Part shown: positions 64-35,059 of the stretch, piece by piece
Layout: every line of letters begins with the position of its first letter
Numbering within the stretch: the stretch's first letter is position 1
DNA from: a virus
UHGV virus genome: UHGV-1502588
Strand: one strand, 5' to 3'
Length of the DNA: 35,059 nucleotides
Program-made: the position numbers and the translations under genes
The notes under the pieces: generated by a model
The model's database searches: none
Told to the model about the DNA's origin: nothing
Seen by the model: only the letters and a program-made list of their open reading frames with translations

Positions 64-118
64 TGGTACCCGGAGTGGGACTTGAACCCACACAGCGCGA
101 ACGCCGAGGGATTTTAAA
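64..118 (-). other. Attachment-site core: 55-nt 3' fragment of tRNA-Leu(UAA) (anticodon-loop 3' half, long variable arm, T-arm, acceptor 3' end with CCA); no 5' half present
   Basis: Reverse complement reads TTTAAAATCCCTCGGCGTTCGCGCTGTGTGGGTTCAAGTCCCACTCCGGGTACCA. This matches the 3' portion of enterobacterial leuZ-type tRNA-Leu(UAA), including the GGTTCAAGTCC T-loop. The sequence 5' of it (positions 119 onward) is not tRNA-like. Confidence 0.75.
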
Positions 119-257
119 TTGGTTGTGAAATATATAATTATCAATCACATACAATTTTATTCCGAACATAGAATACTATTTGAGCACTTAACAATCAAAT
201 GGTTACGCCATTCGCAGCCAGCATCTTCTGACAGAAAAACATCCACATAAGCAAATA

Positions 258-497
258 TTATTCAGTTGCACGGTACCAGGATTGCCAGCGGTAAAGGTTT
301 GTTCTTAGCTCCCGCACGCACTCCGCCGTCTGTGTATCCGCAATTAAATCAGCATGGCTATCACCGCCGGCGTTACTTATCCTGCATGGCTGGTTCATCA
401 AATCCGGGGATATTGTTGGCCGCGTCGATTGCTCGCTGGCGCAGCTGCACAGCAGCAGGATCAAACTGGCACTTAGTATGATTCGGGTCGTTGACAT
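258..497 (-). CDS. o-spanin (Rz1-like outer-membrane lipoprotein), overlapping the 3' half of the i-spanin gene in another frame
   Basis: The 79-aa protein has a signal peptide ending in the lipobox-like LLLCSC. The mature part is Pro/Ser-rich. The gene starts inside the Rz gene and extends past it (overlapped spanin architecture). Confidence 0.6.
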   Translation of the reverse strand: MSTTRIILSASLILLLCSCASEQSTRPTISPDLMNQPCRISNAGGDSHADLIADTQTAECVRELRTNLYRWQSWYRATE

Positions 498-732
498 ATT
501 TCACCACATCACGATAAACGGTACGGTAAATTACCTTGGCTTCTGCGTTCGCCGTTGCCGCCTTCTGCTCTCCGGCTGCTACATCCTTTTCCTGCTTCTT
601 TTCCCGCGTCTTCGCCTGGCTATTAATATGCTCAGAATGCGCGTACCAGCCTTTCAAATACCCGGCATAGAAAACGCCGGCGGTCAGCGCCAGCGATATA
701 CCCGCGATAAGCAATTTCGTTTTGCCATTCAT
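373..732 (-). CDS. i-spanin (Rz-like, N-terminal TM anchor plus periplasmic coiled coil)
   Basis: The N-terminus [26 protein letters not shown] is a single TM helix, followed by a charged coiled-coil region. The ATG overlaps the endolysin stop (ATGA). Position is last in the lysis cassette. Confidence 0.65.
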   Translation of the reverse strand: MNGKTKLLIAGISLALTAGVFYAGYLKGWYAHSEHINSQAKTREKKQEKDVAAGEQKAATANAEAKVIYRTVYRDVVKYVNDPNHTKCQFDPAAVQLRQRAIDAANNIPGFDEPAMQDK

Positions 733-1265
733 TCGTAAAGTCCCCAGCACGTCAGCGCACTTTCCTGATCGCGGCGGTCAACCTGCCCGTAACAGCCGTT
801 GGCCTGCCCCTTCGTCAACCGGCAATCCCGGCCGCCATCAAATACCCAGCGCCGGATCTCCGCGCATGCCCCTTTGCGGTCGCCGGCATTCAGCTTGCGA
901 TAAAACGTCGAAGGGAAGCATTTACCCGGCCCAATGTTGTACGGGCAAAAGCTGGCAATGCCGACTTTCTGCGGCTCAGTTAGCGGAACATGAACATTCT
1001 TTTGTACCCACGCCAGCGCCTTATCGCGTTCGATTGCGTTGTAATGGTCACACTGGCTCTGCGTTAACTTCATCCCCTTCACTACCGGGTGGCCATCGAT
1101 GCGCGTTACCCCCCGGCATATTGACCAAACCCCACCGGGATCGATAACCGCCGTTAGCGTGTTACCTTCGCGTTCACCAATAAACTGATCGAACAGTACC
1201 GGCGCTGACGCACCGGCGGCCAGAAGCGCCAGCATAGCGGCACTGAATTTAGCTTTGTTGCTCAT
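729..1265 (-). CDS. SAR endolysin (phage lysozyme family, R21/P1 Lyz-like)
   Basis: Starts [23 protein letters not shown], a weakly hydrophobic Gly/Ala-rich signal-anchor-release domain. Followed by [10 protein letters not shown] and GACAEIRRW, close to the phage 21 R motifs GVWTVCHGHT and GACDQLRRW. The start overlaps the holin 3' end. Confidence 0.8.
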
Positions 1266-1479
1266 ATTCTCGCGCCTTCCGCCGGTCGTCTTTGATTTTG
1301 AAATACAGATTGGTGAGGTAGGTAAGTAACCCAAAAACAATACTGGCCAGTACGCCGATTGCCGCCCATTGACTGGGACTGACCTTATCGAGAAGTTGCA
1401 GCAACCAGTAGCTGCCGCTCACGGTGGATGTTATATACGACGTTCCCGCCGCTATATCCGGCAAATTCTTCATTCGCAT
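1249..1479 (-). CDS. Class II pinholin (S21-like) with dual start (antiholin from M1, holin from M3)
   Basis: [47 protein letters not shown] is near-identical in pattern to the phage 21 S pinholin. The N-terminus is MRMK (Met1-Arg-Met3), a dual-start motif. A strong RBS GGGGGTAAGG sits upstream. Confidence 0.8.
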
Positions 1480-1535
1480 GCCTTACCCCCACGGGGATCA
1501 CTGTATGTAGTGATGCGAGGGTAAGGCTTAGTATT

Positions 1536-1553
1536 GGTCGGAATCCTGACTAA
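1536..1553 (-). promoter_or_regulatory. Late-unit motif copy A (TTAGTCAGGATTCCGACC on the minus strand), about 65 nt 5' of the lysis cassette
   Basis: One of four near-identical 18-mers (see findings). It lies in the intergenic gap between the 85-aa ORF and the holin. Confidence 0.5.
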
Positions 1554-1557
1554 CTTC

Positions 1558-1818: not shown

Positions 1819-4161
1819 TTAGTTCCCGTACATTCTTAACCCTATTTCTTTAAGGGTATTATTTGCCACACCGTTCGAGTATGTAACTCGCAGGTACATT
1901 GTGTTATCAACGCCTGAGCTAGCCCCCTCTACGGGTAAATATCCTGGCGAAGATGATTGAACATCTGCGGAGACTGACCAGATACCGTCCCCGTTTGCAC
2001 GGGCGGAAACCGATGCCGATAAAAGTACTATAGGGTCTGTTCCATTCCCGTCCACAGCAGACATTGAAATTACATCAATCGTACATACCGAATCCGTAGC
2101 CGCTGCCGCAGCTCCCACACTAAAATCACCGTATGCTGTAAATCCTGAAACAGCGATAGCACCTTCAGGGATCTTATATAAAAAAGTTGCAGTAGCACCG
2201 TTGTTAAATTTCACAGAATTATTAGAATTCCATGATGAAAGAGAAGTAAACGGCGTTCGCAGTATATCCAATGGGCGCAACCACGTAAATTTACGACGCC
2301 ACCCACCAATCGTATTATTGATCAGATACCAGTATTTAATGTTTGCACTGGCTTCGCTTATAGTTATTGAATCCGGCTTGCTCTTAAACCGGTTTCCCGT
2401 TGCATTAGCATTTCTGAAAAACAACTCTTGAAGGCAGTTGGTCGCTTTGATGTTAGAAAACACCGCATACTTACCGGTTACGCCCAGCGCTTGATCGCAA
2501 TTGTTCGCCTCAACCCCATCTATAAAGTTTGGGTTATTTGCATCATTCGTTGTTGCATCGACATAAAATGTACTGACGGCCGATTTAGCATTACCCATTT
2601 TTATGTTTTTAACCAAACAACCTTTGGAGTTGTTGATTAAAATACCTTCGGAGGAAACCGTCCGCCCAAGGTTTGGGACGTTAATATCTCTTATAACGCA
2701 ATCTTCTGTGAAATTAAGCGCCCCAAAACTACCGTTACTGGTGCCCGCGGTCAGTGGTGTTTCAAGGGAGCCCTCTGATATTTCACAATTTGTCGAGTTT
2801 GCAAAGAAAAAGCCAGCGTAATAAGTTCTAACGAGATCGGCTTTAATGACTCGCATATTATGAATTTTCACGTCATAACACGAAGGTGTATTCGGCGTGA
2901 CATCGGAACCCACATTGACACCCTCAGTCCATCCATTGAACACAGGGTTCAGTATTCTGACGTGTTGCGCATTCACGCAGTTAATAGCAAAACCTCCCCA
3001 GTATGTCGGATCGGTATAATATGCTTTTATTACCGGGTTTATGAAATTCACACGCTCAGCCTGAACGAACTGCTGATTATCACGAATATACTGTTTTTGC
3101 GCCGGGTCAGTGAACGCTGCATTAACTATTGAGCCAGGATATGCACCAGACTGGAACAAACTCCATGCCAAATCAAAGTTAAACTCCCGGCTGCTTCCAA
3201 TGATAAAACCACCACGGCCTGTAGTCGCGGAACGAGGATTGATAAACTCCATGGAGCCGCCGCCCACAAACATCACTGTCGTATTCGAATGCGGGAAAAG
3301 ACAAAAATCGACACAGTATTCATCATCAATGATGACCAGCCCACCGCCGTTATCACGTACAGCGTTAAACATTTTCTGGAAACACAATGAATTATCGTGT
3401 GCAAATCCAAGGCCGCCGTTATCTGTATTACCCGCCTTTGCATGAAACATTGCTGGTGTAACCATGTTTTTAACAAGATCAAACAGGTTGCCTGATAACG
3501 GCATGCCAATTAAAGACGTACCAAAATACGCTGCTAATTTTAAAGCGAGATCTGCAGTTTGCGTTTGACCTGCGATAGCAACAGGATCCCCAAAACTATT
3601 AAACCCTAACAGCATCTGCTCGCGAACTTCTACTGGGGGAACCACCCCTACCATCTGCTCAGGAACTCTCAGCACTCTGTTAAGATTCGTTTTTACAGTC
3701 TGACTTACATATTTTTTTGTTGCTGCGTCCTGGTCATTGACAGGGTCAGCAAGGTTTTCGATTCGGTAGCCTTTGGCGTTGAATGGCCCCCCAAAAAAAG
3801 GACGGGTAAGAGCAAACCCAAGATCAATAAACGCGCGCTGGATAGCCATCCAGATACGGTCGAAATCCTTATTGACGGTATCCGCCAGGAGGTCGCCGTT
3901 ATCCTGGTAATCAGTAAGCCGGTATGTCGGTACCACACGTTCGAGCATGACAACCGCACCATTCGCCGGCGGCGTCAGAAACGTAATATCTCCGCCGTCT
4001 TTGTTACCAACGCCGGATACGGTATAGCCGCTGGCAACAACGGAACCATTGATACTTACTTCTAAATCACTGGCGCTGATGATGTAGAATTCGTAAGTAA
4101 ATACGGTTGTCTGTCCGTTGGCCGTATAGATGTTGTAAGGAATTTGGTTAGGTACCGACAT
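1819..4161 (-). CDS. Tail fiber/tailspike: T7 gp17-like N-terminal adaptor domain plus right-handed beta-helix (pectate-lyase-like) capsule depolymerase domain
   Basis: The N-terminal 150 aa (TTVFTYEFYIISASDLEVSINGSVV...DNGDLLADTVNKDFDRIW) follows the T7 tail-fiber N-domain pattern. The remaining 600 aa are Asn/Gly/Ser/Thr-rich with beta-helix repeats. Start chosen at MSVPNQIPYN (GGAG RBS), 18 nt after the terminase stop. Confidence 0.8.
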   Translation of the reverse strand: MSVPNQIPYNIYTANGQTTVFTYEFYIISASDLEVSINGSVVASGYTVSGVGNKDGGDITFLTPPANGAVVMLERVVPTYRLTDYQDNGDLLADTVNKDFDRIWMAIQRAFIDLGFALTRPFFGGPFNAKGYRIENLADPVNDQDAATKKYVSQTVKTNLNRVLRVPEQMVGVVPPVEVREQMLLGFNSFGDPVAIAGQTQTADLALKLAAYFGTSLIGMPLSGNLFDLVKNMVTPAMFHAKAGNTDNGGLGFAHDNSLCFQKMFNAVRDNGGGLVIIDDEYCVDFCLFPHSNTTVMFVGGGSMEFINPRSATTGRGGFIIGSSREFNFDLAWSLFQSGAYPGSIVNAAFTDPAQKQYIRDNQQFVQAERVNFINPVIKAYYTDPTYWGGFAINCVNAQHVRILNPVFNGWTEGVNVGSDVTPNTPSCYDVKIHNMRVIKADLVRTYYAGFFFANSTNCEISEGSLETPLTAGTSNGSFGALNFTEDCVIRDINVPNLGRTVSSEGILINNSKGCLVKNIKMGNAKSAVSTFYVDATTNDANNPNFIDGVEANNCDQALGVTGKYAVFSNIKATNCLQELFFRNANATGNRFKSKPDSITISEASANIKYWYLINNTIGGWRRKFTWLRPLDILRTPFTSLSSWNSNNSVKFNNGATATFLYKIPEGAIAVSGFTAYGDFSVGAAAAATDSVCTIDVISMSAVDGNGTDPIVLLSASVSARANGDGIWSVSADVQSSSPGYLPVEGASSGVDNTMYLRVTYSNGVANNTLKEIGLRMYGN

Positions 4162-4178
4162 AGGGGAAGCTCCGGCGG

Positions 4179-5789
4179 CTAGTAATCTACAGCGACCGAA
4201 ATGTCGCCATCGTATGGCTGCCAATGCTCCCTCGCCTGCGCGGTCGGAATCCCGACTAATTTCCCGATACGTACAGGCGTAGCGCTGATCGCACCGGATC
4301 CAGAATCGATATAGTCGTCTGGCTGGTTAGTTAACGCCGGGTTGAAATCCCGCATCTGGTCGTACATGGGGCCGTCGAGAACGTCGGTATGCGCCCACAG
4401 GAACCGGGACGACAACGGCGCTTCGAATGCATCGAGGATGCGCTTTTGTTTGTTGGTGACGCTGAATTCTTCCCGTACGCCGCAGCCGGTACCCTTCAGC
4501 GCCTGAATAAGCAACTTCCCGGCGAAACTGCCGGGGCCGTTCACTTCTACACATACCAGCGGGATCTGGTACTTCAGCACCAGCTCTTTAATCTGCATCA
4601 CCTGACCGCCGGTGATTTTGTCGTTGTCGTCAAACTCTGCCAGCTCGCCAGTTAACCCCTGGCAAACATGCCAGTAAAGATGCCCGCGGGCGTCGGTGAA
4701 AATAAGGGAAAATGCCGAGGCGTCGGCCTTAACTTTGCCGGTGGCCACATCCCACCAGGCGACAGCGCCGACGATTTGCGTCTGGCCCAGCCACATCGAG
4801 CAGGAACGGTTCGCATAGCGAATTTCAGGCTGGACGTTGTACTCGCGGATACGGTCGGGATCGAGACGAACCTCGCCAACCGGTTTACTGTGCAGCTGGT
4901 ACTGGCTATCCCATTCGTTGACGGTGCGGCACTCTTTACGGCGCAGCAGTAATTCATCATGATCGAAACGGCCTGGCCACGCGCAGCCGGCATAAAAATC
5001 CACGACAGTTTCAGGCGGTGCCGCGAACTCCACACCGTCTTCCGTCAATCGATAATCAGTACCCTCGATCAATAACCGGGCGGCTTTGTGGATCCCCACG
5101 AAAACATATTCCGGGCGGAACGGTATCCGGTATCGTTTTTTGGTTGCCTTCTTCGCTTCGACGCGGTGCTCTTTATCGAATAGCTTTATCGTTAGGCAAT
5201 CGGCGCCCTCTGCTTCTTTCTCGTCGTAAAGGCTATCATGGGTATGCGGCGTACCGATAAACAATTTCCGGCCTCCGGGTATCAAAATATGCGTCTGCTC
5301 GCTTAGGCGATAGCGTAGTTTTTCGCGAGCCTCCGGAGTCTGGATATTGCCGGGCACCTCCACGTCATCATTCTGGCACTCGTTGGCACGGGCGCCGGTG
5401 ACGTTCGACAGAATGCCTTTAGCGAACATGCTGGCGTTACGCATATCCAGCGCGCCGTTTACCCACCATTGCTCGATGGTACCGATGCCGTCCGGCAACA
5501 TGCCTTTCGTCAGAGGGTGATTGCGCAGAACGTTTTGTGTATCGCGGCTGGTCTTTCTGGCAGTTGTATCGGATTCCGACTGATGCAGAATACGGTACTG
5601 GCGATCGCAGTAATACCGCCAGGCGTTATAAACGCCCAGGATAGTTGATTTACCAAAGCCACGAAAACAGCGAAGCACCGCGAGGTTTCCGCGATGCTCC
5701 AGCCAGTGGCAGGCTTTATAGTGGCAGTCCGGCACATCCCAGTTCATCCGTTCTGCCCACATCAAAAAGAAGGCCAGGAACGAAATCAT
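4179..5789 (-). CDS. Terminase large subunit, T7 gp19-like (DNA maturase B)
   Basis: LRCFRGFGKSTILGVYNAWRYY...ILHQSESDTTARK parallels T7 gp19 LQAFRGIGKSFITCAFVVW...ILIVSASKERAD (Walker A). IGTPHTHDSLYDE parallels LGTPQTEMTLYKE. The ATGA overlaps the upstream small gene. Confidence 0.85.
   Translation of the reverse strand: MISFLAFFLMWAERMNWDVPDCHYKACHWLEHRGNLAVLRCFRGFGKSTILGVYNAWRYYCDRQYRILHQSESDTTARKTSRDTQNVLRNHPLTKGMLPDGIGTIEQWWVNGALDMRNASMFAKGILSNVTGARANECQNDDVEVPGNIQTPEAREKLRYRLSEQTHILIPGGRKLFIGTPHTHDSLYDEKEAEGADCLTIKLFDKEHRVEAKKATKKRYRIPFRPEYVFVGIHKAARLLIEGTDYRLTEDGVEFAAPPETVVDFYAGCAWPGRFDHDELLLRRKECRTVNEWDSQYQLHSKPVGEVRLDPDRIREYNVQPEIRYANRSCSMWLGQTQIVGAVAWWDVATGKVKADASAFSLIFTDARGHLYWHVCQGLTGELAEFDDNDKITGGQVMQIKELVLKYQIPLVCVEVNGPGSFAGKLLIQALKGTGCGVREEFSVTNKQKRILDAFEAPLSSRFLWAHTDVLDGPMYDQMRDFNPALTNQPDDYIDSGSGAISATPVRIGKLVGIPTAQAREHWQPYDGDISVAVDY
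4242..4259 (-). promoter_or_regulatory. Late-unit motif copy B (TTAGTCGGGATTCCGACC), inside the 3' end of terL, about 85 nt 5' of the tailspike start
   Basis: Conserved 18-mer; see findings. Confidence 0.5.
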
Positions 5790-6133
5790 TTTTTGCCTTT
5801 GTGTTGCAGCCTCTCGATGACTTCCAGCGCTTTACGCTCAGCAGCTGCTACTTGCTGACCTAACTGGAACGCTTCATCGTCCGGATCTTCTCCGCCGGGC
5901 TTCGGCGTTCCTCCGCGAGTATGCATACCAATTAGTGAATGGACTTTTACCAGCAGGGTTAGCGATGCGGCCGCATTCTTCTTATGCCAGTACCGATCGC
6001 CGCGTTCCTGTTTGGTGTGCTTTGTGATTTCCTTCCCTGCCCCCGGCCAGTTGTCCGGATCGGCTTCTTCCAGAACTACATCTGTGAGCTTATCGCTAAG
6101 AGCAGTAAGGCGAGTTTTGTAATCTGAATGCAT
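5786..6133 (-). CDS. Putative terminase small subunit (positional equivalent of T7 gp18)
   Basis: 115-aa ORF translationally coupled (ATGA) to terL. No confident sequence signature, so the call is by synteny. The start codon is abutted by a hairpin plus U6 with no SD. Confidence 0.45.
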   Translation of the reverse strand: MHSDYKTRLTALSDKLTDVVLEEADPDNWPGAGKEITKHTKQERGDRYWHKKNAAASLTLLVKVHSLIGMHTRGGTPKPGGEDPDDEAFQLGQQVAAAERKALEVIERLQHKGKK

Positions 6134-6162: not shown

Positions 6163-6180
6163 ATGATGTATTCTTTCAAA

Positions 6181-6198
6181 GGTCGGAATCCTGACTAT
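6181..6198 (-). promoter_or_regulatory. Late-unit motif copy C (ATAGTCAGGATTCCGACC), 5' of the hairpin and terminase genes
   Basis: Conserved 18-mer. It lies between the moron and terS. Confidence 0.5.
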
Positions 6199-20232: not shown

Positions 20233-20243
20233 ACGATTCCCCC

Positions 20244-22498: not shown

Positions 22499-22524
22499 CT
22501 ATATACTTCTGGTATGGTTGAACG

Positions 22525-22863: not shown

Positions 22864-23029
22864 ATACTCGCTTCAGAACTATCCATAAAACAAAGGGCAC
22901 TATCCCGGTAATAATGGCTAGTCCGGTACCAGCACAAAAAGTAATTGCATTGGCGTTATCAACCTGGCTGGTTATGTACCACCAAAATATAAAGTTAAAT
23001 GGAATCCAGAAAGGCCAAAATATACTCAT
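22856..23029 (-). CDS. Small hydrophobic membrane protein (2 TM, Trp/Phe-rich)
   Basis: Starts MSIFWPFWIPFNFIFWWYIT. The ATG overlaps the Dam stop (ATGA). Confidence 0.45.
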   Translation of the reverse strand: MSIFWPFWIPFNFIFWWYITSQVDNANAITFCAGTGLAIITGIVPFVLWIVLKRVYG

Positions 23030-24038: not shown

Positions 24039-24629
24039 CTATGCCACCTCCCCAATAAATTCCGCAATGCCCGGCAGCAGCGCCACCGCAGGCGATTCAC
24101 ACTGATTGCCCCAAACATCAAAACCGTGCGACGACTGCCGCGCGAATAACTCAATACGGGGAACGTCGCCCAGCAGCTGCACCAGCATTTCGCGCACGTA
24201 GTCGGGTTTTCTGGAATGCTCGAGCCGCGGCGCCGTGAAAGACTGGATGATCCCGGCATCCAACCGGGCAGGAAGATTCCCCTTCACAGCAAACAAGCAA
24301 TCTTCGCTGTTTGCGCGCGTCATATGTCCCATTCCCATAACGAGCTTGTCGGTCTGCCGGCTTCCGCACTTATTCCAGGTGAATCCCTTCATTGTCATGA
24401 GACGGAAACCCCATGCCTCGATCACCTTCAGAGCCTCGAGCGGCATCGTCGGTACCCACCACATAGCCAGCAGGCAGTTTTCGGCGGCCAGTTCCCACAC
24501 TGGCAAACGGCAGATATCCAGTAGGGTCATGGTCTGATATTTATGCCCGGCGCCACGTTTTCCATCGTTGGCCTTATCGCGGTATGTCCACGGCGGATCA
24601 GCGTATATCAGGGTGTATTTTTGGTTCAT
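24039..24629 (-). CDS. MT-A70 family N6-adenine DNA methyltransferase (DPPW class)
   Basis: MNQKYTLIYADPPWTY carries the DPPW catalytic motif near the N-terminus. Start chosen at M5, which has an SD. Confidence 0.8.
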   Translation of the reverse strand: MNQKYTLIYADPPWTYRDKANDGKRGAGHKYQTMTLLDICRLPVWELAAENCLLAMWWVPTMPLEALKVIEAWGFRLMTMKGFTWNKCGSRQTDKLVMGMGHMTRANSEDCLFAVKGNLPARLDAGIIQSFTAPRLEHSRKPDYVREMLVQLLGDVPRIELFARQSSHGFDVWGNQCESPAVALLPGIAEFIGEVA

Positions 24630-24772
24630 GCAGCCACCCATTCAATCAGGGAGCAGCCAGCCCATAACACAGCTAAAATAGCCAACCAGCCAATTACGTT
24701 AACTAATGCCGCGAACCAAAGCAGAGTGCGGCGGCTGTAATGCTCAATATCTCGTTTAAAAAAATTCTTCAC
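24626..24772 (-). CDS. Possible 48-aa membrane protein (GTG start), not in the ORF track
   Basis: GGGAGA SD 7 nt 5' of the GTG. One TM helix (LLWFAALVNVIGWLAILAVLWAG). The stop overlaps the MTase ATG (ATGA). Confidence 0.3.
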   Translation of the reverse strand: MKNFFKRDIEHYSRRTLLWFAALVNVIGWLAILAVLWAGCSLIEWVAA

Positions 24773-27101: not shown

Positions 27102-28090
27102 AGCGAACCTTCCCGGGTTTTACGTAACGTTTCAGGTTTCATCAGGTAGTCAAAGCTGGCGCGCCAGCCGCCGTTAGCACCGAAATAAAAATCTGACGCA
27201 TCAGCGCGGAATTTTTCGAAATACCCCAAAAATGCGCCCGTGGTTTTGTTTTTCATGTGTGCGGCAAGCTGGGCGATCATTCGGCGGCGGTCGGTATCCA
27301 GTTCAGCGGCAGGCAGAACGTCAGCAAAAATTTCGTTGTAGCCGTTCATAACGGCTTCCGGATCAATGTCGGTTTCGGTCATCTCCCATGCTGCAGCGTC
27401 AGCGAGATAACCATCAAAACGGTTTACCCGGCAGATGTTCGCTGGCTTCGGCAGGCTATCGCCACGGCGGCGCCATGTGGCCAGAACCCAGCGGATAACT
27501 AACTGCAATTCATCCAGGGTGTACCCTGCCCGGGTGGTGGTCGGCGTCAGCATCATCACAAACGGTTTCAGGTCACGGCAGCGGGTACCGGTTTGCTCGT
27601 TGTAAAATTCCAGCGCTTTTTGTGCATCAGAAAGAATTATCTCAACGCCTTCCCCCTCTAAGGGGTTAGGGGTATATATATTCTCTGTAGTATTCTCTGT
27701 AAGAAAGTTTGCTGGTTTTCCACTTACTTGCTTGCTGGTTTTCCGCATTCCAGTATGTGGTTTTTCCGCATCCTTGTTTGCGGCTACAAGCGCTTGAAAT
27801 AAAACATCATTATCAATCTTGTAGAAAAGACTAGCAGGTACACCTTTCTTTTTTTCCAGCAGTACACCAATTGAGCGAAGTTTCTTACGCGCCCCCTCCT
27901 GCTCGTAACGGGAAAGCCCTGTTTCTTCCTCCCATTCTTCCTGGGTTTTATATACCCATCCGTCATCGTCGGATCGGTTAGTCCAGTAAGTCATTTGAGA
28001 CAGGAACAGTGCAGCCGTCACACCAATATTCAGACGAATGAAACTACGCTGGAAGGCGATCGGCCTGTCGAGTAATGGCAAAATATTCAT
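27098..28090 (-). CDS. Replication initiation protein (O-like, N-terminal DNA-binding domain plus conserved phage C-terminal helicase-loader-interaction domain)
   Basis: Position upstream of DnaB and coupled to it. Iterons and an AT-rich stretch lie in the middle of the gene, as in lambda O. Confidence 0.6.
   Translation of the reverse strand: MNILPLLDRPIAFQRSFIRLNIGVTAALFLSQMTYWTNRSDDDGWVYKTQEEWEEETGLSRYEQEGARKKLRSIGVLLEKKKGVPASLFYKIDNDVLFQALVAANKDAEKPHTGMRKTSKQVSGKPANFLTENTTENIYTPNPLEGEGVEIILSDAQKALEFYNEQTGTRCRDLKPFVMMLTPTTTRAGYTLDELQLVIRWVLATWRRRGDSLPKPANICRVNRFDGYLADAAAWEMTETDIDPEAVMNGYNEIFADVLPAAELDTDRRRMIAQLAAHMKNKTTGAFLGYFEKFRADASDFYFGANGGWRASFDYLMKPETLRKTREGSL
27650..27775. promoter_or_regulatory. 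Putative replication origin inside the initiator gene: AT-rich tract plus direct repeats (iterons)
   Basis: GTATATATATTCTCTGTAGTATTCTCTGTAAG, followed by GCTGGTTTTCC twice and TGGTTTTTCCGCA. The repeats are visible by eye. Confidence 0.45.
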
Positions 28091-28334: not shown

Positions 28335-28781
28335 TTAAACGCTGGTCAGGCGCTGTGTTTCTCGCATCGCTTGCAATGCCTTCGCGACTTGCTGCGGGCC
28401 GTCTCTGGCCTCGAGCAATAACGCGATAATGGCCGCCGCAAATTCGCGTATAGCGACGCAGATCAAATACTGGGTGGACATGTCCAGGCGCGCGTAGCGT
28501 TCTGCCGGCAGTGCCGCTTCCATCGCTTTAGCCAGCGTCTGGGTTTTAGTTCTGGCCGCTTTCGTCTCACCACGCAGCCAGCGAAAAATCTGTTGGCGGT
28601 TATTGTTGATGGCCCGCCAGTCTGCATTTCCGTCTGCATCTTCAATCTGGTGCAGCTTCAGCACGCCAGTGTTACCACCGAGACGAAACCACATACGGCT
28701 TATCTCGATAGCAACCAACTCCTGCCCGCTTTCAGCTGCCCAGCTAAATATCTCTCGTTTCAGTTCCTCGAGGTTCTCCAC
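28335..28781 (-). CDS. YdaT-like protein (CII-position protein of Rac-type immunity regions)
   Basis: AAESGQELVAIEI...RQQIFRWLRGETKAARTKTQTLAKA parallels E. coli YdaT AAEKGQAWVANAI...QQNIYHRWLKGETKTQREKIQKL. Confidence 0.55.
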   Translation of the reverse strand: MENLEELKREIFSWAAESGQELVAIEISRMWFRLGGNTGVLKLHQIEDADGNADWRAINNNRQQIFRWLRGETKAARTKTQTLAKAMEAALPAERYARLDMSTQYLICVAIREFAAAIIALLLEARDGPQQVAKALQAMRETQRLTSV

Positions 28782-28841: not shown

Positions 28842-29078
28842 TTAAGCTGCATCCTGTTCTGGTAGTCCATCGGTTGGCTTCCGATAAATGCTTGGGAGCA
28901 GATCGTGGGGAGTTACCTGGTAATTGGTTGCTGCTGACCATACCAATGCTGATGCAGCAGACAGAAAGCATTCCCCAGCAGCGATTCGGCTTACATAGCC
29001 TTGAGTTTTCCCAACCAGTACGGCGAACTCATGCTGACGAACACCAGATGTTTTTAAGTAGTCTTTCAGTTTCATCAT
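28842..29078 (-). CDS. Cro/YdaS-like HTH regulator (divergent from the repressor)
   Basis: HTH in QHEFAVLVGKTQGYVSRIAAGE. 78 aa. AGAGG RBS. Confidence 0.65.
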   Translation of the reverse strand: MMKLKDYLKTSGVRQHEFAVLVGKTQGYVSRIAAGECFLSAASALVWSAATNYQVTPHDLLPSIYRKPTDGLPEQDAA

Positions 29079-29181: not shown

Positions 29182-29637
29182 ATGAGAAAGAAAACCATTG
29201 ACGCCGTTGAACGCGAAGCAGCTAAACGCCTTCGTGAAATCTGGAACGAAAAAAAAGTAACTTTACGTCTGACTCAGGAGAAGGCAGCGGAGGTGCTTGG
29301 CTTCAGCACGCAGGCGTCAGTAAGCCATTACTTAAATGGCACTACGCCACTAAATACCGATGCCACTTTAAAATTCGCCTCACTTCTTGGAGTGAAACCA
29401 GAAGAGATTCGGCCTGATCTGGCTGAAATGATGAATTACGTTAGAAAGTCAGGTGAGTATCTAGAAGATCGATCAGGACCAGGCTGGAAGCTACTTAGCC
29501 CAGAACATGCAGAACTCATTGATTTGTATGAAAGACTTCCACAGAGCGAAAAAGAACGGCATTTATCTGATTTAAAAGAGAAAGTGGAAGGTTTTGATCG
29601 TTTATTTAGAGAGTTACTAGCCACACGAAAGCAATAA
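29182..29637 (+). CDS. CI-like prophage repressor, XRE-family HTH, without a LexA-like (S24) autocleavage domain
   Basis: HTH in LTQEKAAEVLGFSTQASVSHYLNG. 151 aa. The C-terminus lacks the S24 Ser/Lys motifs. Flanked by operator repeats. Confidence 0.75.
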   Translation: MRKKTIDAVEREAAKRLREIWNEKKVTLRLTQEKAAEVLGFSTQASVSHYLNGTTPLNTDATLKFASLLGVKPEEIRPDLAEMMNYVRKSGEYLEDRSGPGWKLLSPEHAELIDLYERLPQSEKERHLSDLKEKVEGFDRLFRELLATRKQ

Positions 29638-30593: not shown

Positions 30594-30637
30594 TTAACTG
30601 GCGCTTGACCTGCGCCTGCAACCAAGAGGAAAGACCA

Positions 30638-32782
30638 ATGACCATCTACAACGGCTTATTCGAGCCAAAAAAATCGGCTATCAAAGACTGCGGCGCCGTG
30701 CAGCTGGCGATCGCCGTCGAAGCACCAAACAAGAAAATCGCCGAAAGCATTATCACCGGCAAACTCTGGGAATCTTACCCGGCGAACGGTGACAACTATT
30801 TCAAACCGAAGCTGTGGGAACACGAAGAAGGCCAGCCGCTGCCAACCGTTGGCCAGTTCGACGAGCTATTCGCCCAGCAACATACTTTCGACGGTGAAAA
30901 ATGGGTTTCCATCGCCGCGAACGGTACCGCCGGTGAGGAATCAAATTTACCCGCTGGTGATGATGTTATCGATCTGATGACTGTTTCTCCTAGCGAACGC
31001 TTTGCTGCCGTCCTGCTGTTTAGTACCGCGGCAATTGATGGCCATCTTTATTCTCAGGTTGTGGATTATCTGGATAACCTGAATAACCGTGATACAGAAC
31101 TGGAAGAAGAAGATCGTTTTAACCTTAACGTTCTGTGTGCTCTGCACAATAACGAACCAGTTAAGCACATGCATGTTGAAGGGCTGAATAATCTTATTCA
31201 GGGCATTTTCTCCCATTTTGAAAACCAGACTCCGGGCAAATCGGCTATTTCTCAATTTGTAAAACGCTGGCTTGAGAATCCTGGCAAACGTGAAGAAATG
31301 GTACCAGGCCAAAATTCCTCACTCGGCGCCGCCAGCACTGATACCAACGTTAAAATCGCGCCAAAACGAGGTTATAAACATACCTATGCAACACTGGTTC
31401 AGGAGATCGCTGTCGCCCTACTCCCTATTTCTCCCGACGCGCCAGTATTATCAGGCAACCTTCGCGATGCTGAGAAAATCATTGCAGACGAGCGCGAAGA
31501 TTTTAAACGTTGGTCAATGGCGCTTCGCACCACGGAGCACATTCTCAAATATGACCGAGACAGTATTTTTGGCGTAGTGCAGAACGTACCGGCAAAAGAT
31601 ACCTACCATTTCCCTGACAGCCTACGCCGCCACATTGATTCATGGCTGGAAGCAAACGGCCGCTTTGAAGAAACCGAGACAGGATCCGTTAAACAACCAG
31701 AGGCAACGCAAAATACCACCTCAAACGTGGTCGAAAAAGAGGAAGCGCCACAGCCGGTGGTAACCGATACCCAGGCCAAACAGGCGCGTGAGACGCTCAA
31801 CGATATGGGCTATGGCGTATATGCCTCTGGTGATGCAGAACAGCCAGTAGAGAAGTTAAGCGCTAAAGCGGAAACAATAGCTGATAACGCCGAGGTGCTG
31901 GCAAAGCAAATTATTCACGCTGAAAGACTGCCTGACGCTGAAGAAGTAATGAAGTCTGCCGGCGCACAGAGTATCGGACAGGACAATTTAGAACTGTGGA
32001 AACGTGTATTCAAAACTGATGAACGGTTTACTAAAGCCTTTACGCAGAACGGCGGCGGTACCTCGATCAACGGTACCTATTTAACCATGCTTGCCACTCG
32101 CGAGTTTGGGCCAAAGGGAATCGGCTGGGGTGTGGACATCCTCGAGGAACGTTTCGATATCGGTGCCCCCATTACACGCCAGGTGAAAGGGAAAGATAAC
32201 AATGCGTCATGGGAGTTAGTGCTCGACGGGAATGGAAATACCGTCAACGAGCAGCATCACGTCGTTACCGTGCGACTCTGGTACATCCTGAATGGTGTGC
32301 GCGGCGAGGAAACGGCCTACGGTTGCACGCCATACATTTACGGCAGTAAGTACGGGATCACCTGCGATGGTGAGGCAACAAAAAAATCGCTGACTGATGC
32401 AACCAAAAAGGCTTTATCTGGCCTCGGCTTCAGTGGCGATATCTTCATGGGCCTTTACGACAATCTGGAATACCGCCAGAAAAACAAGGCAGAGTTTGAT
32501 CTGAAGAATGCCAGCGAAACCGCAGAAGACGCAGCACGTCTTCGCCAGGAATTCGACGACAAACTCAGCCGTGTTGCTAACACTCTCGCCCATGGCGTGA
32601 CAGTGAACGAAATAAACGGCGTTTTCTCCCCTATCGCACGTGAAATCGATGTTCACATTAAGGCCGCACAGGCCAACGGTGACGCGCAACATGAACGTTA
32701 TCTGTCTGGCCGCTTGCGCCGACTTATTACGATTAAAGACGGCCGCATCAAAGAACTGAATAAAGCTGAGGAGAAAGCATAA
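30638..32782 (+). CDS. Large protein with a C-terminal Rad52/Sak-type single-strand annealing domain and an unknown N-terminal domain of about 470 aa
   Basis: NGGGTSINGTYLTMLATREFGPKGIGWGV...VVTVRLWYILNGVRGEETAYG...KKSLTDATKKALSGLGFSGDIF parallels the Rad52 N-domain [31 protein letters not shown]...HEDVGYG...[20 protein letters not shown]. Start at MTIYN (GAGG SD). Confidence 0.7.
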   Translation: MTIYNGLFEPKKSAIKDCGAVQLAIAVEAPNKKIAESIITGKLWESYPANGDNYFKPKLWEHEEGQPLPTVGQFDELFAQQHTFDGEKWVSIAANGTAGEESNLPAGDDVIDLMTVSPSERFAAVLLFSTAAIDGHLYSQVVDYLDNLNNRDTELEEEDRFNLNVLCALHNNEPVKHMHVEGLNNLIQGIFSHFENQTPGKSAISQFVKRWLENPGKREEMVPGQNSSLGAASTDTNVKIAPKRGYKHTYATLVQEIAVALLPISPDAPVLSGNLRDAEKIIADEREDFKRWSMALRTTEHILKYDRDSIFGVVQNVPAKDTYHFPDSLRRHIDSWLEANGRFEETETGSVKQPEATQNTTSNVVEKEEAPQPVVTDTQAKQARETLNDMGYGVYASGDAEQPVEKLSAKAETIADNAEVLAKQIIHAERLPDAEEVMKSAGAQSIGQDNLELWKRVFKTDERFTKAFTQNGGGTSINGTYLTMLATREFGPKGIGWGVDILEERFDIGAPITRQVKGKDNNASWELVLDGNGNTVNEQHHVVTVRLWYILNGVRGEETAYGCTPYIYGSKYGITCDGEATKKSLTDATKKALSGLGFSGDIFMGLYDNLEYRQKNKAEFDLKNASETAEDAARLRQEFDDKLSRVANTLAHGVTVNEINGVFSPIAREIDVHIKAAQANGDAQHERYLSGRLRRLITIKDGRIKELNKAEEKA

Positions 32783-33348
32783 TGACTTCCACAACTGCAA
32801 TTGCTATCGCTGCTGATATGTCTAAACTCCAGGCGCTTCTGGAAAACGAAGACGGTTCTGGTCTGTCAGCTGAAATGATCGCCGATACAATGGAGGGGCT
32901 CGAGCTGCAGCTCGGCGACAAACTGGACGCGGTATTCGTCCACGTTCGCAACCTTGAGGGTCTGGCGAAAACCTGCGACGAAGAAGCCAAACGCCTGGCC
33001 GCCCGTAAAAAGTCTTTCGAAGGTAAGATCACCAACCTGAAGAAATATGTTCTCCAGTGCCTTCTGGCCGCCGGACAGGATACTGTAAAAACGGCAAAAA
33101 ACACCTTCACCGCCCGTAAAGGTGCAATCAACGTGGTGATCGATAACGTTGATTTACTCCCGGATGAATTGGTGACCGTTCAGACAGTAGTTGCGCCTGA
33201 CAAAAAGGCAATAAAAGAAGCTATCGAGTCAGCAGAAGCGGCCGCAGCTCAGATTACCGCAGATGGTGGGGAAGTCCCGGAAGAACTCTTAAACCCGGTT
33301 CCGGGCGCCCACATTGAAATCGGCGAACGTTCACTGCAGGTACGCTGA
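32782..33348 (+). CDS. Gp157-family-like phage protein (frequently linked to recombination genes)
   Basis: 188 aa with a coiled-coil N-terminus (LQALLENEDG...LEGLAKTCDEEAKRLAARKKSFEGKITNLKKYV). The ATG overlaps the SSAP stop (ATAATGA). Confidence 0.45.
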   Translation: MTSTTAIAIAADMSKLQALLENEDGSGLSAEMIADTMEGLELQLGDKLDAVFVHVRNLEGLAKTCDEEAKRLAARKKSFEGKITNLKKYVLQCLLAAGQDTVKTAKNTFTARKGAINVVIDNVDLLPDELVTVQTVVAPDKKAIKEAIESAEAAAAQITADGGEVPEELLNPVPGAHIEIGERSLQVR

Positions 33349-33349
33349 T

Positions 33350-33535
33350 ATGCTGAGACTATCCCTGAAAAAAGGTGATGCGGTTCACGTCGTTTTACCA
33401 GATGGAACCAACGCAATTATCGAAGCGCGGGCCCGTTGCGAACTCGGCATGCACTTCCCCCGCAATATCAAGATAACGCGTGAAGATGGTGCATTCCGAC
33501 CGAAACAAAACCTGATTAAGCGTAATCAGAAATAA
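33350..33535 (+). CDS. Hypothetical 61-aa protein (faint CsrA-like beta-rich pattern)
   Basis: MLRLSLKKGDAVHVVLPDG...GMHFPRNIKITRED. Start 1 nt after the upstream stop (TGATATG). Confidence 0.35.
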   Translation: MLRLSLKKGDAVHVVLPDGTNAIIEARARCELGMHFPRNIKITREDGAFRPKQNLIKRNQK

Positions 33536-33584
33536 CCCATCACTACCGATAGCATTGTGGTCTACCAATAAACCGGAGATCACA

Positions 33585-33809
33585 ATGCTACGTTGGCAAC
33601 CAGGTGTAGTTTTACTTTCAGAATTCGATATCAAAATTGGCAGGCTATCAGCCAGCGTTAGAAAGAGGACTCTGACCCAGTCCGATATCCAGCGCGCTTG
33701 CGATGCAGCAGACAACGCTATAGCCGGCATGCTGAGGAAAGACCATGAGACACGATCACGACATCATCACCAGAGAGGAAATGATCGAGCTGACGGGGAC
33801 GCCACTTAA
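33585..33809 (+). CDS. Hypothetical small protein (C-terminal extent uncertain; overlaps the next gene)
   Basis: GGAG RBS 7 nt before the ATG. The frame overlaps the DUF4224 gene by 65 nt. Confidence 0.3.
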   Translation: MLRWQPGVVLLSEFDIKIGRLSASVRKRTLTQSDIQRACDAADNAIAGMLRKDHETRSRHHHQRGNDRADGDAT

Positions 33810-34008
33810 ATCAAAACAATGTGAGGCGCTGCGCCGGGCCGGCATCTTCTTTATGGAAAGAGCAGATGGCCACCCTAAAACCACATGGGGCCACTTCCTG
33901 AACCCGATCAAGTACCGCGGCCAGAAGGAAGATATAACGCACGAAAATGACGAACCTGATTTTGGAGCTATATTCGATGGCCGGAAAGCGAAAGAATCCT
34001 GCCGATAG
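33745..34008 (+). CDS. DUF4224-like small protein adjacent to the integrase (possible excision/recombination directionality factor)
   Basis: ITREEMIELTGTPLKSKQCEALRRAGIFFMERADGHP matches the conserved LTxEELxELTG...WLRxxGIPF...DGRP pattern of integrase-adjacent DUF4224 proteins. The GAGGAAAGACCATG cassette sits at its start. Confidence 0.55.
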   Translation: MRHDHDIITREEMIELTGTPLKSKQCEALRRAGIFFMERADGHPKTTWGHFLNPIKYRGQKEDITHENDEPDFGAIFDGRKAKESCR

Positions 34009-34993
34009 CTGGATGCCCCCGCGAGTATACCGGGGCAAGGCTGCATTTGAATTCCGTACGAAAGACAACAAAGGGATCCGCCTGTGTGGGTTAAATGAAC
34101 CACAATCCGCTGTATGGCTGGCATATGAAAAAGCTGTAGGTGAAGTGACAGAAAGAAAAACGTTCCAGGCGCTCACAGAGCAGTTTATGGCGTCTCCAGA
34201 CTGGCAGGATTTAGCGGCAGAAACCAGAAAAGACTATACGAAATACGCAGGAAAAGTGTTGCCAGTATTCGGGAAAGTTAACCCTGATAAAATTAAACCT
34301 GAACACATCCGGCGATATATGGATCAACGTGGTATTGCCAGTAAAACGCAGGCCAACCGGGAAAAGAGTTTTCTCTCGCGGGTATTCCGCTGGGGTTACG
34401 AGCGGGGTTACGTCCAGCACAATCCCTGCCAGGGCGTTAAGAAGTTCAAAGAGACAGCCCGAGAGCGTTACATCACCGACGAAGAATACAAAGCGGTTTA
34501 CGATGTGGCTCCTGACGTAGTGCGCGCCACCATGGAAATAGCTTATTTGTGTCTGGCCAGACAAAGCGATGTGCTGGCTTTAACTGAAGACCAGATACGG
34601 GAAACCGGGATATTTATCCGCCAGGGGAAAACAGGAGTGAAGCAAATCAAGGCATGGTCGCCACGCCTCCGCGCTGCCGTCGCCCTCGCCCGTTCCCTGC
34701 CGTTAAAGCCGGGTATCCGTAGCCTGTTCGTCATTCACCAGACCAGCGGCAGTAAATACACTCGCGACGGTTTTAATTCACGCTGGCGCGAAGCCAAAAT
34801 TGCAGCACAGGAGAAGTACCCACACCTGCAGATAGATTTCACATTTCACGATCTGAAGGCTAAAGGTGTCTCTGATCTGGAAGGAAGCCTCGAGGAGAAG
34901 CAGGCAATTTCTGGTCATAAGAATTCGAGACAAACGGCGATTTATGACAGGAAAACTAAAATTGTGCCGGTTGTTGGCGGTCAGAAAAAATGA
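33977..34993 (+). CDS. int: Tyrosine recombinase / phage integrase
   Basis: The C-terminal catalytic region has HDLKAKGVSD and TAIYDR (catalytic Tyr). Starts MAGKRKNP. Located next to the att end. Confidence 0.85.
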   Translation: MAGKRKNPADSWMPPRVYRGKAAFEFRTKDNKGIRLCGLNEPQSAVWLAYEKAVGEVTERKTFQALTEQFMASPDWQDLAAETRKDYTKYAGKVLPVFGKVNPDKIKPEHIRRYMDQRGIASKTQANREKSFLSRVFRWGYERGYVQHNPCQGVKKFKETARERYITDEEYKAVYDVAPDVVRATMEIAYLCLARQSDVLALTEDQIRETGIFIRQGKTGVKQIKAWSPRLRAAVALARSLPLKPGIRSLFVIHQTSGSKYTRDGFNSRWREAKIAAQEKYPHLQIDFTFHDLKAKGVSDLEGSLEEKQAISGHKNSRQTAIYDRKTKIVPVVGGQKK

Positions 34994-35009
34994 ATCGCTA
35001 TGCGTTCGT

Positions 35010-35059
35010 AGAAAAACCATCTTCGGACGCATCTTCGGAAATGACGCTTCGGAAATGAA
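35010..35059. repeat. Three direct CTTCGGA(A) repeats 3' of the integrase (putative arm-type integrase binding sites); an inverted copy TTCCGAA lies at 164..170 near the left att
   Basis: ATCTTCGGAcgcATCTTCGGAAatgacgCTTCGGAAatgaa. Read directly. Confidence 0.3.

Follow-up and report, generated by a model that had tools for sequence, protein, structure and literature searches.

The virus genome UHGV-1502588, a stretch of 35,059 bp analysed here over its whole length and called the window below, is a complete and probably functional temperate podovirus that joins a lambdoid early region to a virion module of the YeP4 lineage, with late promoters predicted to be served by the host σ70 RNA polymerase (RNAP). 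We put the probability of this reading at roughly 0.7. The element is a mosaic relative of the YeP4-like temperate podophages (unclassified Caudoviricetes), belonging neither to the same species nor to the same genus, and in this sense is one more mosaic of known modules; what seems to be new is a putative set of dyad-bearing promoters with a co-inherited helix-turn-helix (HTH) gene, and a candidate leader RNA on the capsid transcript. A first-pass annotation had described the DNA as a temperate mosaic in which a lambdoid control region drives the virion genes. Essentially every gene that it listed (integrase, CI/Cro, O-like initiator and DnaB, podovirus virion genes and lysis genes) was recovered at its place by our profile searches, and the mosaic with its Rac-like immunity and replication region stands, though to say that this region drives the late genes is imprecise, as these apparently have conserved promoters of their own and do not simply extend it.

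The gene map (Table 1) was drawn from the open reading frame (ORF) list and profile searches of Pfam, PHROGs and NCBIfam, and places all virion and lysis genes on the minus strand, in one long array running from the Cro-like gene through to the lysis cassette. We compared 16 virion and packaging proteins, plus the lysozyme, with the genomes of YeP4, HTVC010P, TL-2011b, BPP-1, VpV262, T7 and P22, using TL-2011b as a stand-in for the ε15 type (its tubular tail protein B, or tube B, shares 98.9% identity with the phiV10 protein and 88% with the ε15 one). YeP4 matched 14 of the 16 proteins as well as the lysozyme, at 51-84% identity except for o147 (34%) and the internal protein with the SLT domain (29%); the gp16 homologue was unmatched. 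HTVC010P matched the portal, scaffold, capsid, tube A, tube B and fibre N-domain at 27-37%, whilst TL-2011b matched the two giant internal proteins over their full length (59% and 71%), tube B (40%), tube A (28%), the portal (27%), the fibre N-domain (32%) and the scaffold. With BPP-1 the similarity covered tube B (30%, full length), the portal (28%), tube A and the SLT domain; VpV262 matched only TerL and the GNAT acetyltransferase, weakly, T7 only TerL (32% over 198 aa) and P22 nothing. Capsid, tube A and tube B, each compared pairwise with T7 by BLASTP, yielded nothing above noise, and a two-sequence search matched the portal to T7 gp8 at 24% identity (E 7e-13). When the portal and tube B were searched by tblastn against 50,697 phage records, about 260 records were matched by each, comprising YeP4-6, HTVC010P-type pelagiphages, ε15-type Escherichia and Salmonella phages and Pseudomonas AF-like phages, along with Vibrio, Burkholderia, Xanthomonas, Liberibacter, Bordetella and Acinetobacter phages. 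Autographiviridae were absent from the matches listed and from the organism tallies, though thousands are present in the collection.

By these protein comparisons the virion module belongs to the YeP4 lineage within the ε15/BPP-1/HTVC010P group of podoviruses and not to the T7 group, and the terminase is its only part with a T7 affinity. The first-pass annotation had called the module T7-like and had itself named a better match to other podovirus families as what would overturn that label, which is the outcome of the comparison. The gene order that it took as canonical for T7 does hold from gp8 to gp16, but not beyond, where the terS-like gene and terL precede the fibre gene; similarly, the two large internal proteins assigned to gp15 and gp16 are both present, but the SLT domain lies in the gp15-position protein and not in the gp16 homologue. 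One could still suppose that a true T7-type (Autographiviridae-related) module was captured by a lambdoid control region and then lost its single-subunit RNAP, which would make this an unusual element. The retained gp8-gp16 order speaks for such a capture, as do the T7-named Pfam families that match the portal, fibre N-domain, TerL and nozzle, and the portal and TerL similarities to T7 given above. We nevertheless consider it very unlikely: all virion proteins but TerL match YeP4, HTVC010P, ε15-type phages or BPP-1 rather than T7, the capsid and both tube proteins are without BLASTP similarity to T7, the sequence tests already point to a tail tube and capsid outside the T7 subgroup, and no Autographiviridae stand among the roughly 260 portal and nozzle records listed. 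The relatives examined are, moreover, without a polymerase, so that no loss needs to be invoked, and the T7-like layout of tail tube and internal virion proteins has been argued to be ancestral to most podoviruses (PMC4819975). The case is a caution for annotation: family names in Pfam that mention T7 ('T7 tail fibre', 'T7 terminase'), even combined with the ancestral podovirus gene order, are insufficient for calling a module T7-like.

Hardies et al. (PMC4819975) grouped BPP-1, ε15, BcepC6B, VP5 and Liberibacter SC1 into an ε15 tail-structure subgroup, apart from the T7 subgroup, and the element falls with the former by its tube B (30% identical to BPP-1 Bbp13, 40% to that of TL-2011b) and its internal virion protein D (71% to TL-2011b gp38). 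It does not fall within the genus Uetakevirus: megablast of the first 25 kb never covered more than 8% against any phage record, and the capsid, TerL and early genes are unmatched in TL-2011b. A portal-based scan with one genome per species gave 72 chromosomal loci, located in Enterobacterales (Raoultella, Pluralibacter, Enterobacter, Trabulsiella, Rosenbergiella, Serratia, Symbiopectobacterium, Pectobacterium and Pantoea) and, outside them, in Pseudomonas, Stenotrophomonas, Acinetobacter and Burkholderiales. The same mosaic, in which Rac-type immunity and a RepO/DnaB early region accompany the same late module, was seen in Raoultella, Enterobacter, Serratia and Symbiopectobacterium, and the virion module occurred in three of 5,426 complete E. 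coli genomes among the matches listed.

The lack of a phage RNAP, which the first-pass annotation reported, was confirmed. The seven ORFs of at least 500 aa all have other assignments and gave no match to PF00940, and tblastn of T7 gp1 against the window reached a best E of 1.1 only, the control search having recovered the T7 locus at 100%; nor did any of the 72 related chromosomal loci (portal ±10 kb) return a match. The accompanying idea that late expression needs the host RNAP and a phage factor is supported by this absence. However, an integrating element without an RNAP is not the anomaly it was taken for, and the missing RNAP is to be expected, because no polymerase is annotated or found in the relatives examined, most of which are temperate: BPP-1 has none, none is annotated in YeP4-6, and TL-2011b carries an integrase with no annotated polymerase. 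HTVC010P-type phages lack RNA and DNA polymerases alike, and their subgroup II integrates into tRNA genes (PMC8477408). Temperate podoviruses that integrate at tRNA genes, lack an RNAP and share this virion layout are already documented, for example in ε15/phiV10, BPP-1, HTVC010P subgroup II and YeP4-6. The Autographiviridae, by comparison, are defined by a single-subunit RNAP and a strictly lytic lifestyle without an integration module, and here the former is lacking, while the window has an integration module of integrase, excisionase and tRNA att copy, and a repressor as well.

That the polymerase might lie beyond the window had been held open earlier, and this caveat can now be dropped. 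The end of the window (…GGAAATGAA) joined to its start (AAAACCACCCGGAGG…) reproduces the contiguous int-terminator-tRNA sequence of an E. coli lysogen, so the window represents exactly one unit of the element, be it in the attP form or cut at the att repeats, and there is no further part of the element in which an RNAP gene could lie. The closest E. coli relative, 91% identical across 77% of the window's first 25 kb, is a prophage with yecA on one side and the leuZ-cysT-glyW tRNA operon on the other; its int is followed some 130 bp further on by an intact tRNA-Leu. The integration target is accordingly shown to be the 3' end of tRNA-Leu (leuZ). Of the tyrosine integrase at a tRNA-Leu att described earlier, the integrase stands, but the tRNA-Leu is only partial: ARAGORN found no tRNA gene in the window, which has a 57-nt copy of the 3' part, identified visually and through alignment to E. 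coli leuZ. Just past int, the sequence CTTCGGA(A) occurs three times, closely spaced, at 35020-35059 (+); the three copies are kept in the E. coli relative and may represent arm-type binding sites of the integrase.

Completeness also bears on whether the element is a defective or cryptic prophage remnant with late genes that are no longer expressed. The E. coli relative carries an IS110 insertion, which would fit such decay, but in the window the core ORFs are all intact and full length, int, xis and the att-side features are all there, the regulatory motifs discussed below are kept under apparent selection, and the length of 35,059 bp compares with 35,029 bp in the inducible YeP4. Since the close relatives YeP4-6 also yield infectious particles, we regard a remnant as highly improbable.

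The late genes of the element would be transcribed by the host σ70 RNAP from five phage-specific promoters, placed before the o147-portal, capsid, terS-TerL, fibre and holin blocks. The motif behind this proposal was first spotted as a short sequence present twice in the capsid leader, and in its full form is a 15-mer dyad, GTCRGGAWWCYGACC, with five exact sites in the window against none expected, all of them on the late strand. Each dyad is followed, after a 12-nt spacer, by a hexamer whose second base is A and whose sixth is T (A2/T6). Orthologous dyad-hexamer sites number four in YeP4 and five in the E. coli relative, and among the enterobacterial loci examined the dyad lies about 50 nt before o147 in nearly all, and about 145 nt before the capsid start in all except the divergent Pantoea. 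An unbiased search for the best 16-mer shared between capsid- and portal-upstream regions returned the same dyad in Pseudomonas, Stenotrophomonas, Cupriavidus, Massilia, Herbaspirillum and others. Taking all loci together, 90 dyad sites are on the late strand compared with a single one on the opposite strand, and 68 of the 74 unique sites have both A2 and T6 (92% and 93%), with a spacer that varies freely in sequence. Because the A2/T6 hexamer is kept at a fixed distance whilst the spacer is free, we read these sites as σ70-type promoters, each with a -10 hexamer 12 nt downstream of a dyad which, centred near -32.5, would replace the -35 element. The predicted starts would give 5' leaders of about 20-56 nt for four of the blocks and of about 124 nt for the capsid gene. 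Partial dyad cores that fall short of the 15-mer are also present, namely CGGGAAACCGA at 16833-16843 (-), which lies near the capsid ribosome-binding site (RBS) and makes up the third hairpin of the leader, and CTGGATACCGACC at 27291-27301 (-), inside repO.

The same observations need to be weighed against a lambda-style arrangement, in which one long transcript, begun at the early promoter on the Cro side or at a single late promoter, would be carried through the late genes by an unrecognised Q- or N-like antiterminator or a put-like RNA, and the dyads would act as RNA hairpins (boxB-like, or for processing). All genes from cro through the lysis cassette are indeed co-directional, three co-directional intrinsic terminators within the array would have to be passed, three of the five dyads can fold as hairpins of 5-7 bp, some with GAAA loops, and the dyads of distant loci change symmetrically. 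We consider this arrangement rather unlikely. The Q and N antiterminator families gave no match (Pfam, PHROGs and NCBIfam; ORFs in 20008-22937), two of the five dyads fold poorly (-2.1 kcal/mol), and the sequences read upstream of the dyads showed no evident boxA-like partner, though no formal search for one was made. Hairpins would also leave unexplained both the A2/T6 hexamer at its fixed 12-nt distance in 68 of 74 sites and the placement of the dyads 45-150 nt before the starts of gene blocks. Lambdoid phages typically combine N/Q antitermination with a single late promoter before the lysis genes, whereas here the lysis genes are distal and five motifs are dispersed along the array. A role for the dyads as RNase III sites was rejected as well, stems of 5-7 bp being too short.

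If the sites are promoters of the kind we propose, they should need activation, because a -35 element is unrecognisable and several of the -10 hexamers are weak. The gene of a 98-aa protein of the XRE/Cro-C1 type, here termed HTH98, is the last before the first of the predicted promoters, the -10 hexamer of which overlaps its stop codon, and in many loci the first dyad is at most about 60 nt from the end of this gene. HTH98 is found in 55 of the 72 loci irrespective of the early region, and also in YeP4, whose early genes are unrelated; among isolated phages, homologues were seen in YeP4-6 and two Acinetobacter phages only. The predicted core (residues 10-70, pLDDT about 90) has the XRE/Cro-C1 fold, with the N-domain of P22 c2 and the C-proteins of restriction-modification systems as the nearest solved structures in Foldseek. 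Of particular relevance to its possible target, changes in the recognition-helix region are paired with symmetric changes in the dyad: the dyad GTCGGG…CCGAC goes with LGWK, GCCGAG…TCGGC with TSWQ, GGCGAG…TCGCC with KSWS and GTCAAG…TCGAC with VIYWK. HTH98 is therefore probably the late-gene activator, as far as such comparisons can tell, and would bind the dyad, activate the late promoters and be inherited together with the virion module. Searches of HTH98 against the Mor/C, Ogr and CII families gave no match, and returned generic HTH matches only, all below cut-offs. Two other assignments were considered and set aside. HTH98 as a small terminase (weak PF10668 and phrog_7067 matches) was rejected because the gene in the terS position is coupled to terL and the HTH98 fold is XRE; the 112-aa phrog_536 protein as late regulator was rejected because only lambdoid-type mosaics (five loci) have it, and YeP4, with the same promoters, does not.

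An HTH protein at a -35 region could also act as a repressor, with HTH98 keeping the late promoters off, be it during lysogeny or at an early stage of infection, and the promoters being driven by another factor or by the unaided σ70 holoenzyme. The PHROGs label of the family is 'transcriptional repressor', repressors typically bind at sites that overlap the -35 region, and the XRE fold is common to many repressors. On the other hand, HTH98 is encoded at the distal end of the lytic early operon rather than within the immunity region, the labels in PHROGs are untested annotations, and promoters with no recognisable -35 and several weak -10 hexamers (GAGCAT, TACCCT) should need activation, so that a purely repressive HTH98 seems unlikely to us.

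Several points nevertheless count against our proposal that HTH98 activates σ70 promoters through the dyad. The promoters, the activator and the antirepressor described below are all read from sequence alone, -32.5 is an uncommon centre for the dyad of a class II activator, the HTH98 family carries the repressor label, and its Foldseek matches are weak (E 0.02-0.1). The three dyads able to form stable RNA hairpins remain a concern, as symmetric co-variation fits a hairpin or an operator alike. The co-occurrence of HTH98 and the dyad is also imperfect, with both in 35 loci, HTH98 only in 14, the dyad only in five and neither in eight, which is partly due to divergent dyads escaping the search pattern. 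Furthermore, no promoter motif precedes the tail-tube genes, whose expression by read-through is assumed, and the host genus is drawn only from 99%-identical HTH98 proteins in Klebsiella pneumoniae and Raoultella, which suggest Klebsiella or Raoultella as the most likely host. We would give even odds to the broader proposition that a large and hitherto uncharacterised family of temperate podoviruses, present as prophages in Enterobacterales, Pseudomonas, Stenotrophomonas and Burkholderiales, shares a previously undescribed late system made up of an XRE activator, a 15-bp dyad near -32.5, four to five σ70 promoters and a capsid leader RNA. Neither the dyad motif nor the HTH98 family was found in the searchable literature, the search for the dyad having returned unrelated papers only.

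The intrinsic terminators within the array number three, and those that flank the capsid gene would insulate a high-output capsid transcription unit with a structured leader. Tail-tube and internal-protein genes would then be reached by read-through of the terminator, as they presumably must be because no dyad promoter precedes the tail-tube genes. The capsid leader is kept across about a dozen genera, and compensatory changes affect five of the eight pairs of its middle hairpin; 98.6% of cells were paired, compared with 24-40% for slid partners, and the observed covariation was reached in none of 500 shuffles. Rfam at its gathering thresholds gave no match in the window, the leader included, so that this is an RNA with covariation and no Rfam family. 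It may act on translation or mRNA stability, or as a protein operator.

Upstream of the late genes, the element conforms to the lambdoid plan in a Rac-type variant, with a divergent CI/Cro-type immunity region followed by a gene in the cII position (YdaT), and an O-like initiator accompanied by a DnaB-type helicase. The earlier calls of a CI/Cro switch (29182-29637 on the plus strand and 28842-29078 on the minus strand), of an O-like initiator with DnaB (27098-28090 and 25713-27101) and of phage-21-type lysis genes placed distally near att (373-1479; PF04971, PF00959 and phrog_2536) were all borne out. The term 'nin-like genes' was loose, as the NinB and NinG families had no match among the ORFs scanned and the accessory region contains a theta-like gene, two adenine methylases, the 112-aa regulator, a 69-aa ORF, a DUF1367 protein and a Ref-type nuclease. 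The segment 21195-25000, with DUF1367, small ORFs and the two methylases, is 86% identical in nucleotide sequence to the Stenotrophomonas phages BUCT708 and BUCT709, an unexpected host pairing for DNA of enterobacterial type.

The CI-like repressor is without an S24 autocleavage domain, and a LexA box precedes the 69-aa ORF; a CTGT-N8-ACAG box is upstream of homologues of this ORF in seven of eight loci. Small antirepressors under SOS control are familiar from the Gifsy phages, from 186 (Tum) and from N15 (AntC). Since the repressor lacks the cleavage domain and the LexA box is so placed, an SOS-controlled antirepressor is the likely induction route, and by analogy with these phages induction probably proceeds via this small LexA-controlled protein.

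Table 1. Positions of genes, predicted regulatory sites and att features in the window (promoters, starts and functional names are predictions).
Feature	Coordinates	Strand	Basis or remark
leuZ-downstream-like flank with terminator	1..61	-	part of att-flanking repeat; with window end recreates int-to-tRNA sequence of E. coli lysogen
tRNA-Leu(UAA) 3' part, leuZ-type, 57 nt	62..118	-	att core copy, no full tRNA gene; alignment to E. coli leuZ
Rz-like spanin	373..750	-	phrog_2536, E 5.6e-44
Endolysin/lysozyme	729..1340	-	ORF as listed, true start probably near 1265; PF00959, E 2e-22; YeP4 lysozyme 63%
Phage-21-type class II holin	1249..1479	-	PF04971, E 1e-30
Predicted P-lysis, before holin-lysozyme-Rz	1518..1550, dyad 1550-1536	-	dyad GTCAGGATTCCGACC, 12-nt spacer, TACCCT (1523-1518)
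Tail fibre/spike with T7-type N-terminal adaptor domain	1819..4224	-	likely start 4161; PF03906, E 1.1e-11; YeP4 57% over N-terminal 221 aa; TL-2011b 32%
Large terminase TerL	4179..5789	-	PF22530; T7 gp19 32% over 198 aa, E 1e-18; YeP4 76%
Predicted P-fibre, inside terL 3' end	4224..4256, dyad 4256-4242	-	dyad GTCGGGATTCCGACC, N12, GAGCAT
115-aa protein, small-terminase position	5786..6133	-	translationally coupled to terL; YeP4 counterpart 64%
Predicted P-ter, before terS-TerL	6163..6195, dyad 6195-6181	-	dyad GTCAGGATTCCGACC, N12, CATCAT
Antisense accessory ORF, 173 aa	6215..6736	+	between gp16-homologue and terS-like genes, putative cargo slot; phrog_8033 (function unknown)
Internal virion protein D, 964 aa, gp16 homologue without lysozyme domain	6737..9631	-	phrog_342, E 9e-193; TL-2011b gp38 71% full length
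Internal virion protein with SLT transglycosylase domain, 904 aa, gp15 position	9631..12345	-	PF01464; TL-2011b gp37 59% full length
Small internal virion protein, gp14-like	12346..12813	-	phrog_418, E 9e-40
GNAT acetyltransferase, gp13 position	12816..13265	-	between tube B and gp14-like genes; PF00583; phrog_1249; in 55 related loci
Tubular tail protein B (tube B) / nozzle	13268..15298	-	PF25675; BPP-1 Bbp13 30% full length, E about 1e-81 to 7e-81; HTVC010P 36%; TL-2011b 40%; no T7 match
Tubular tail protein A (tube A) / adaptor, gp11-like	15264..15827	-	phrog_394, E 3e-59; no BLASTP match to T7 gp11
Strong intrinsic terminator directly after capsid gene, before tube A	15851..15870	-	GCCGGGGGATATCTCCCGGC then T-run; same place as T7 Tφ
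Major capsid protein	15887..16798	-	PF19821, E 9e-68; YeP4 84%; HTVC010P 30%
Structured 5' leader of capsid mRNA, three hairpins	16799..16925	-	middle hairpin with five compensatory pairs, loop AGCGCCAA
Predicted P-capsid	16929..16961, dyad 16961-16947	-	dyad GTCGGGATTCCGACC, N12, AACAAT
Intrinsic terminator after 89-aa insert, before P-capsid	16971..16993	-	kept in most relatives
89-aa moron-like ORF between scaffold and capsid genes	17011..17280	-	phrog_717 (function unknown); good RBS; terminator after
Scaffold-position protein	17314..18162	-	'endoprotease' in YeP4 annotation; phrog_3742; YeP4 60%
Bbp19-family small protein	18149..18382	-	profile search
Portal	18382..20004	-	PF12236, E 1.8e-120; YeP4 82%; T7 gp8 in pairwise search only
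Two small conserved late genes, o74 (20008-20232) and o147 (20244-20687)	20008..20687	-	profile searches, related loci
HTH98, 98-aa XRE/Cro-C1-type HTH protein, candidate late activator	20716..21012	-	phrog_16553; predicted structure, Foldseek
Predicted P-portal, before o147-o74-portal	20718..20750, dyad 20750-20736	-	dyad GTCGGGAAACTGACC, N12, CACAAT; overlaps HTH98 stop codon
Ref-type RecA-dependent nuclease	21168..21485	-	profile search
DUF1367 protein	21482..22078	-	profile search
69-aa ORF, candidate SOS-controlled antirepressor	22147..22356	-	phrog_340; LexA box upstream
LexA box	22363..22382	-	TACTGTGAATTTATACAGTA, near-consensus; overlaps perfect TATAAT (22364-22359); just downstream of 22500-22479 terminator
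Strong intrinsic terminator after 112-aa regulator gene	22479..22500	-	terminator prediction
112-aa protein	22525..22863	-	phrog_536 'transcriptional regulator'
D12-class adenine DNA methyltransferase	23026..23859	-	profile search
MT-A70 adenine DNA methyltransferase	24039..24641	-	profile search
DnaB-type helicase	25713..27101	-	PF03796
Lambda-O-like initiator RepO	27098..28090	-	phrog_428 and phrog_9773 'O-like'; PGAP name RepO
YdaT	28335..28781	-	next after Cro-like gene
Cro-like HTH	28842..29078	-	faces CI-like gene
CI-like HTH repressor without S24 domain	29182..29637	+	HTH domain only in profile search
725-aa exonuclease (phrog_2489) and Gp157-family protein, early-left recombination module	30605..33348	+	profile searches
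Excisionase	33745..34008	+	profile searches
Tyrosine integrase	33947..34993	+	profile searches
Predicted transcription starts, about 7 nt past hexamers	near 20711, 16922, 6156, 4217, 1511	-	sequence prediction

Some further features of the virion module point to exchange and cargo. The 904-aa and 964-aa internal proteins track TL-2011b (59-71%) and the rest of the module YeP4, so that a recombination boundary lies inside it. The gp16 homologue aligns only to positions 199-1226 of the phrog_342 profile, the N-terminal lysozyme part being absent, and the C-terminal part of the fibre is unlike that of relatives. The gap between the scaffold and capsid genes ranges from about 210 to 700 bp among relatives and looks like an insertion hot spot for morons. 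Genes on the opposite strand also occupy the junction of the gp16-homologue and terS-like genes in the E. coli relative, and two do so in YeP4, which suggests that this is a cargo slot. An acetyltransferase is annotated after tube B in HTVC010P-type phages too, and among the tail genes of VpV262; in the window the GNAT protein may be a virion-borne or ejected enzyme. An NCBIfam search of ten small or unassigned proteins gave no matches.

The closest comparison is with YeP4, YeP5 and YeP6 (MK733262-4), induced prophages of Y. enterocolitica O:9, which like the window are temperate, about 35 kb long (35,029 bp in YeP4) and equipped with an integrase and a repressor. Mitomycin C treatment induced these prophages, and the resulting phages are podoviruses under the electron microscope and form turbid plaques (PMC6548840). 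YeP4 shares the late module gene for gene, from the small HTH gene to the gp14-like gene, and in addition the terS-like gene, TerL, the fibre N-domain, the lysozyme and dyad promoters at orthologous sites. The early regions are unrelated, YeP4 encoding another repressor and a DNA polymerase, primase and helicase of its own; the two giant internal proteins are not common to both, and nucleotide similarity extends over only about 1.3 kb. The ε15-type phages (Uetakevirus: Salmonella ε15, E. coli phiV10 and TL-2011b) are likewise temperate enterobacterial podoviruses with the same virion gene order, but their terminase genes come before the portal and their early region differs, and in TL-2011b the capsid, TerL, small proteins, HTH98 and lysis genes of the window are unmatched.

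Bordetella phage BPP-1 (Rauchvirus) resembles the window in its whole layout, with a tRNA att, lysis genes, fibre, giant internal proteins including one with SLT, tube B, tube A, capsid, 'protease'/scaffold, Bbp19, portal, cro|cI, exonuclease and xis-int, although its sequences are distant. BPP-1 further carries a diversity-generating retroelement and encodes a DNA polymerase, primase and helicase of its own; its repressor is LexA-like and cleavable, and its att site is at tRNA-His. The HTVC010P-type pelagiphages share the length of about 35 kb, the lack of an RNA polymerase and the acetyltransferase gene after tube B, but infect marine SAR11 hosts and have different early genes, and no HTH98 homologue was detected for them in the matrix.

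As to mechanism, the C/Mor proteins of Mu, Ogr of P2 and CII of lambda are small phage DNA-binding proteins that recruit the host σ70 RNAP to several dispersed promoters that lack a -35 element and each carry a conserved dyad for the protein; lambda CII, with 97 aa, binds across the -35 region. The C-proteins that control restriction-modification systems have the XRE fold, as does HTH98 by prediction. The dyad sequence and its -32.5 position are distinct from the activator promoters of Mu, P2 and lambda, and any likeness would be one of mechanism only. If the proposed regulon is real, it would offer a portable activator/promoter pair dependent on the host RNAP, as well as a marker motif for annotating the prophage family; in the meantime it provides a concrete prediction, with five mapped promoters and one candidate activator, of how late genes are switched on in a widespread family of prophages.

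With T7 and the Autographiviridae the window has in common the portal-scaffold-capsid-tube A-tube B-internal protein order, a T7-type terminase and fibre N-domain, the terminator right after the capsid gene and, as far as predicted here, several dispersed phage-specific late promoters. Unlike T7, the element is temperate, is without a single-subunit RNAP and has capsid and tail-tube proteins with no detectable similarity to those of T7. The T7 promoters are polymerase-specific 23-mers, whereas those predicted in the window have a σ70-type -10, so that, if our reading is right, the late system of this prophage family would be a functional parallel to the dispersed polymerase-specific promoters of T7, but one that works with the RNAP of the host.

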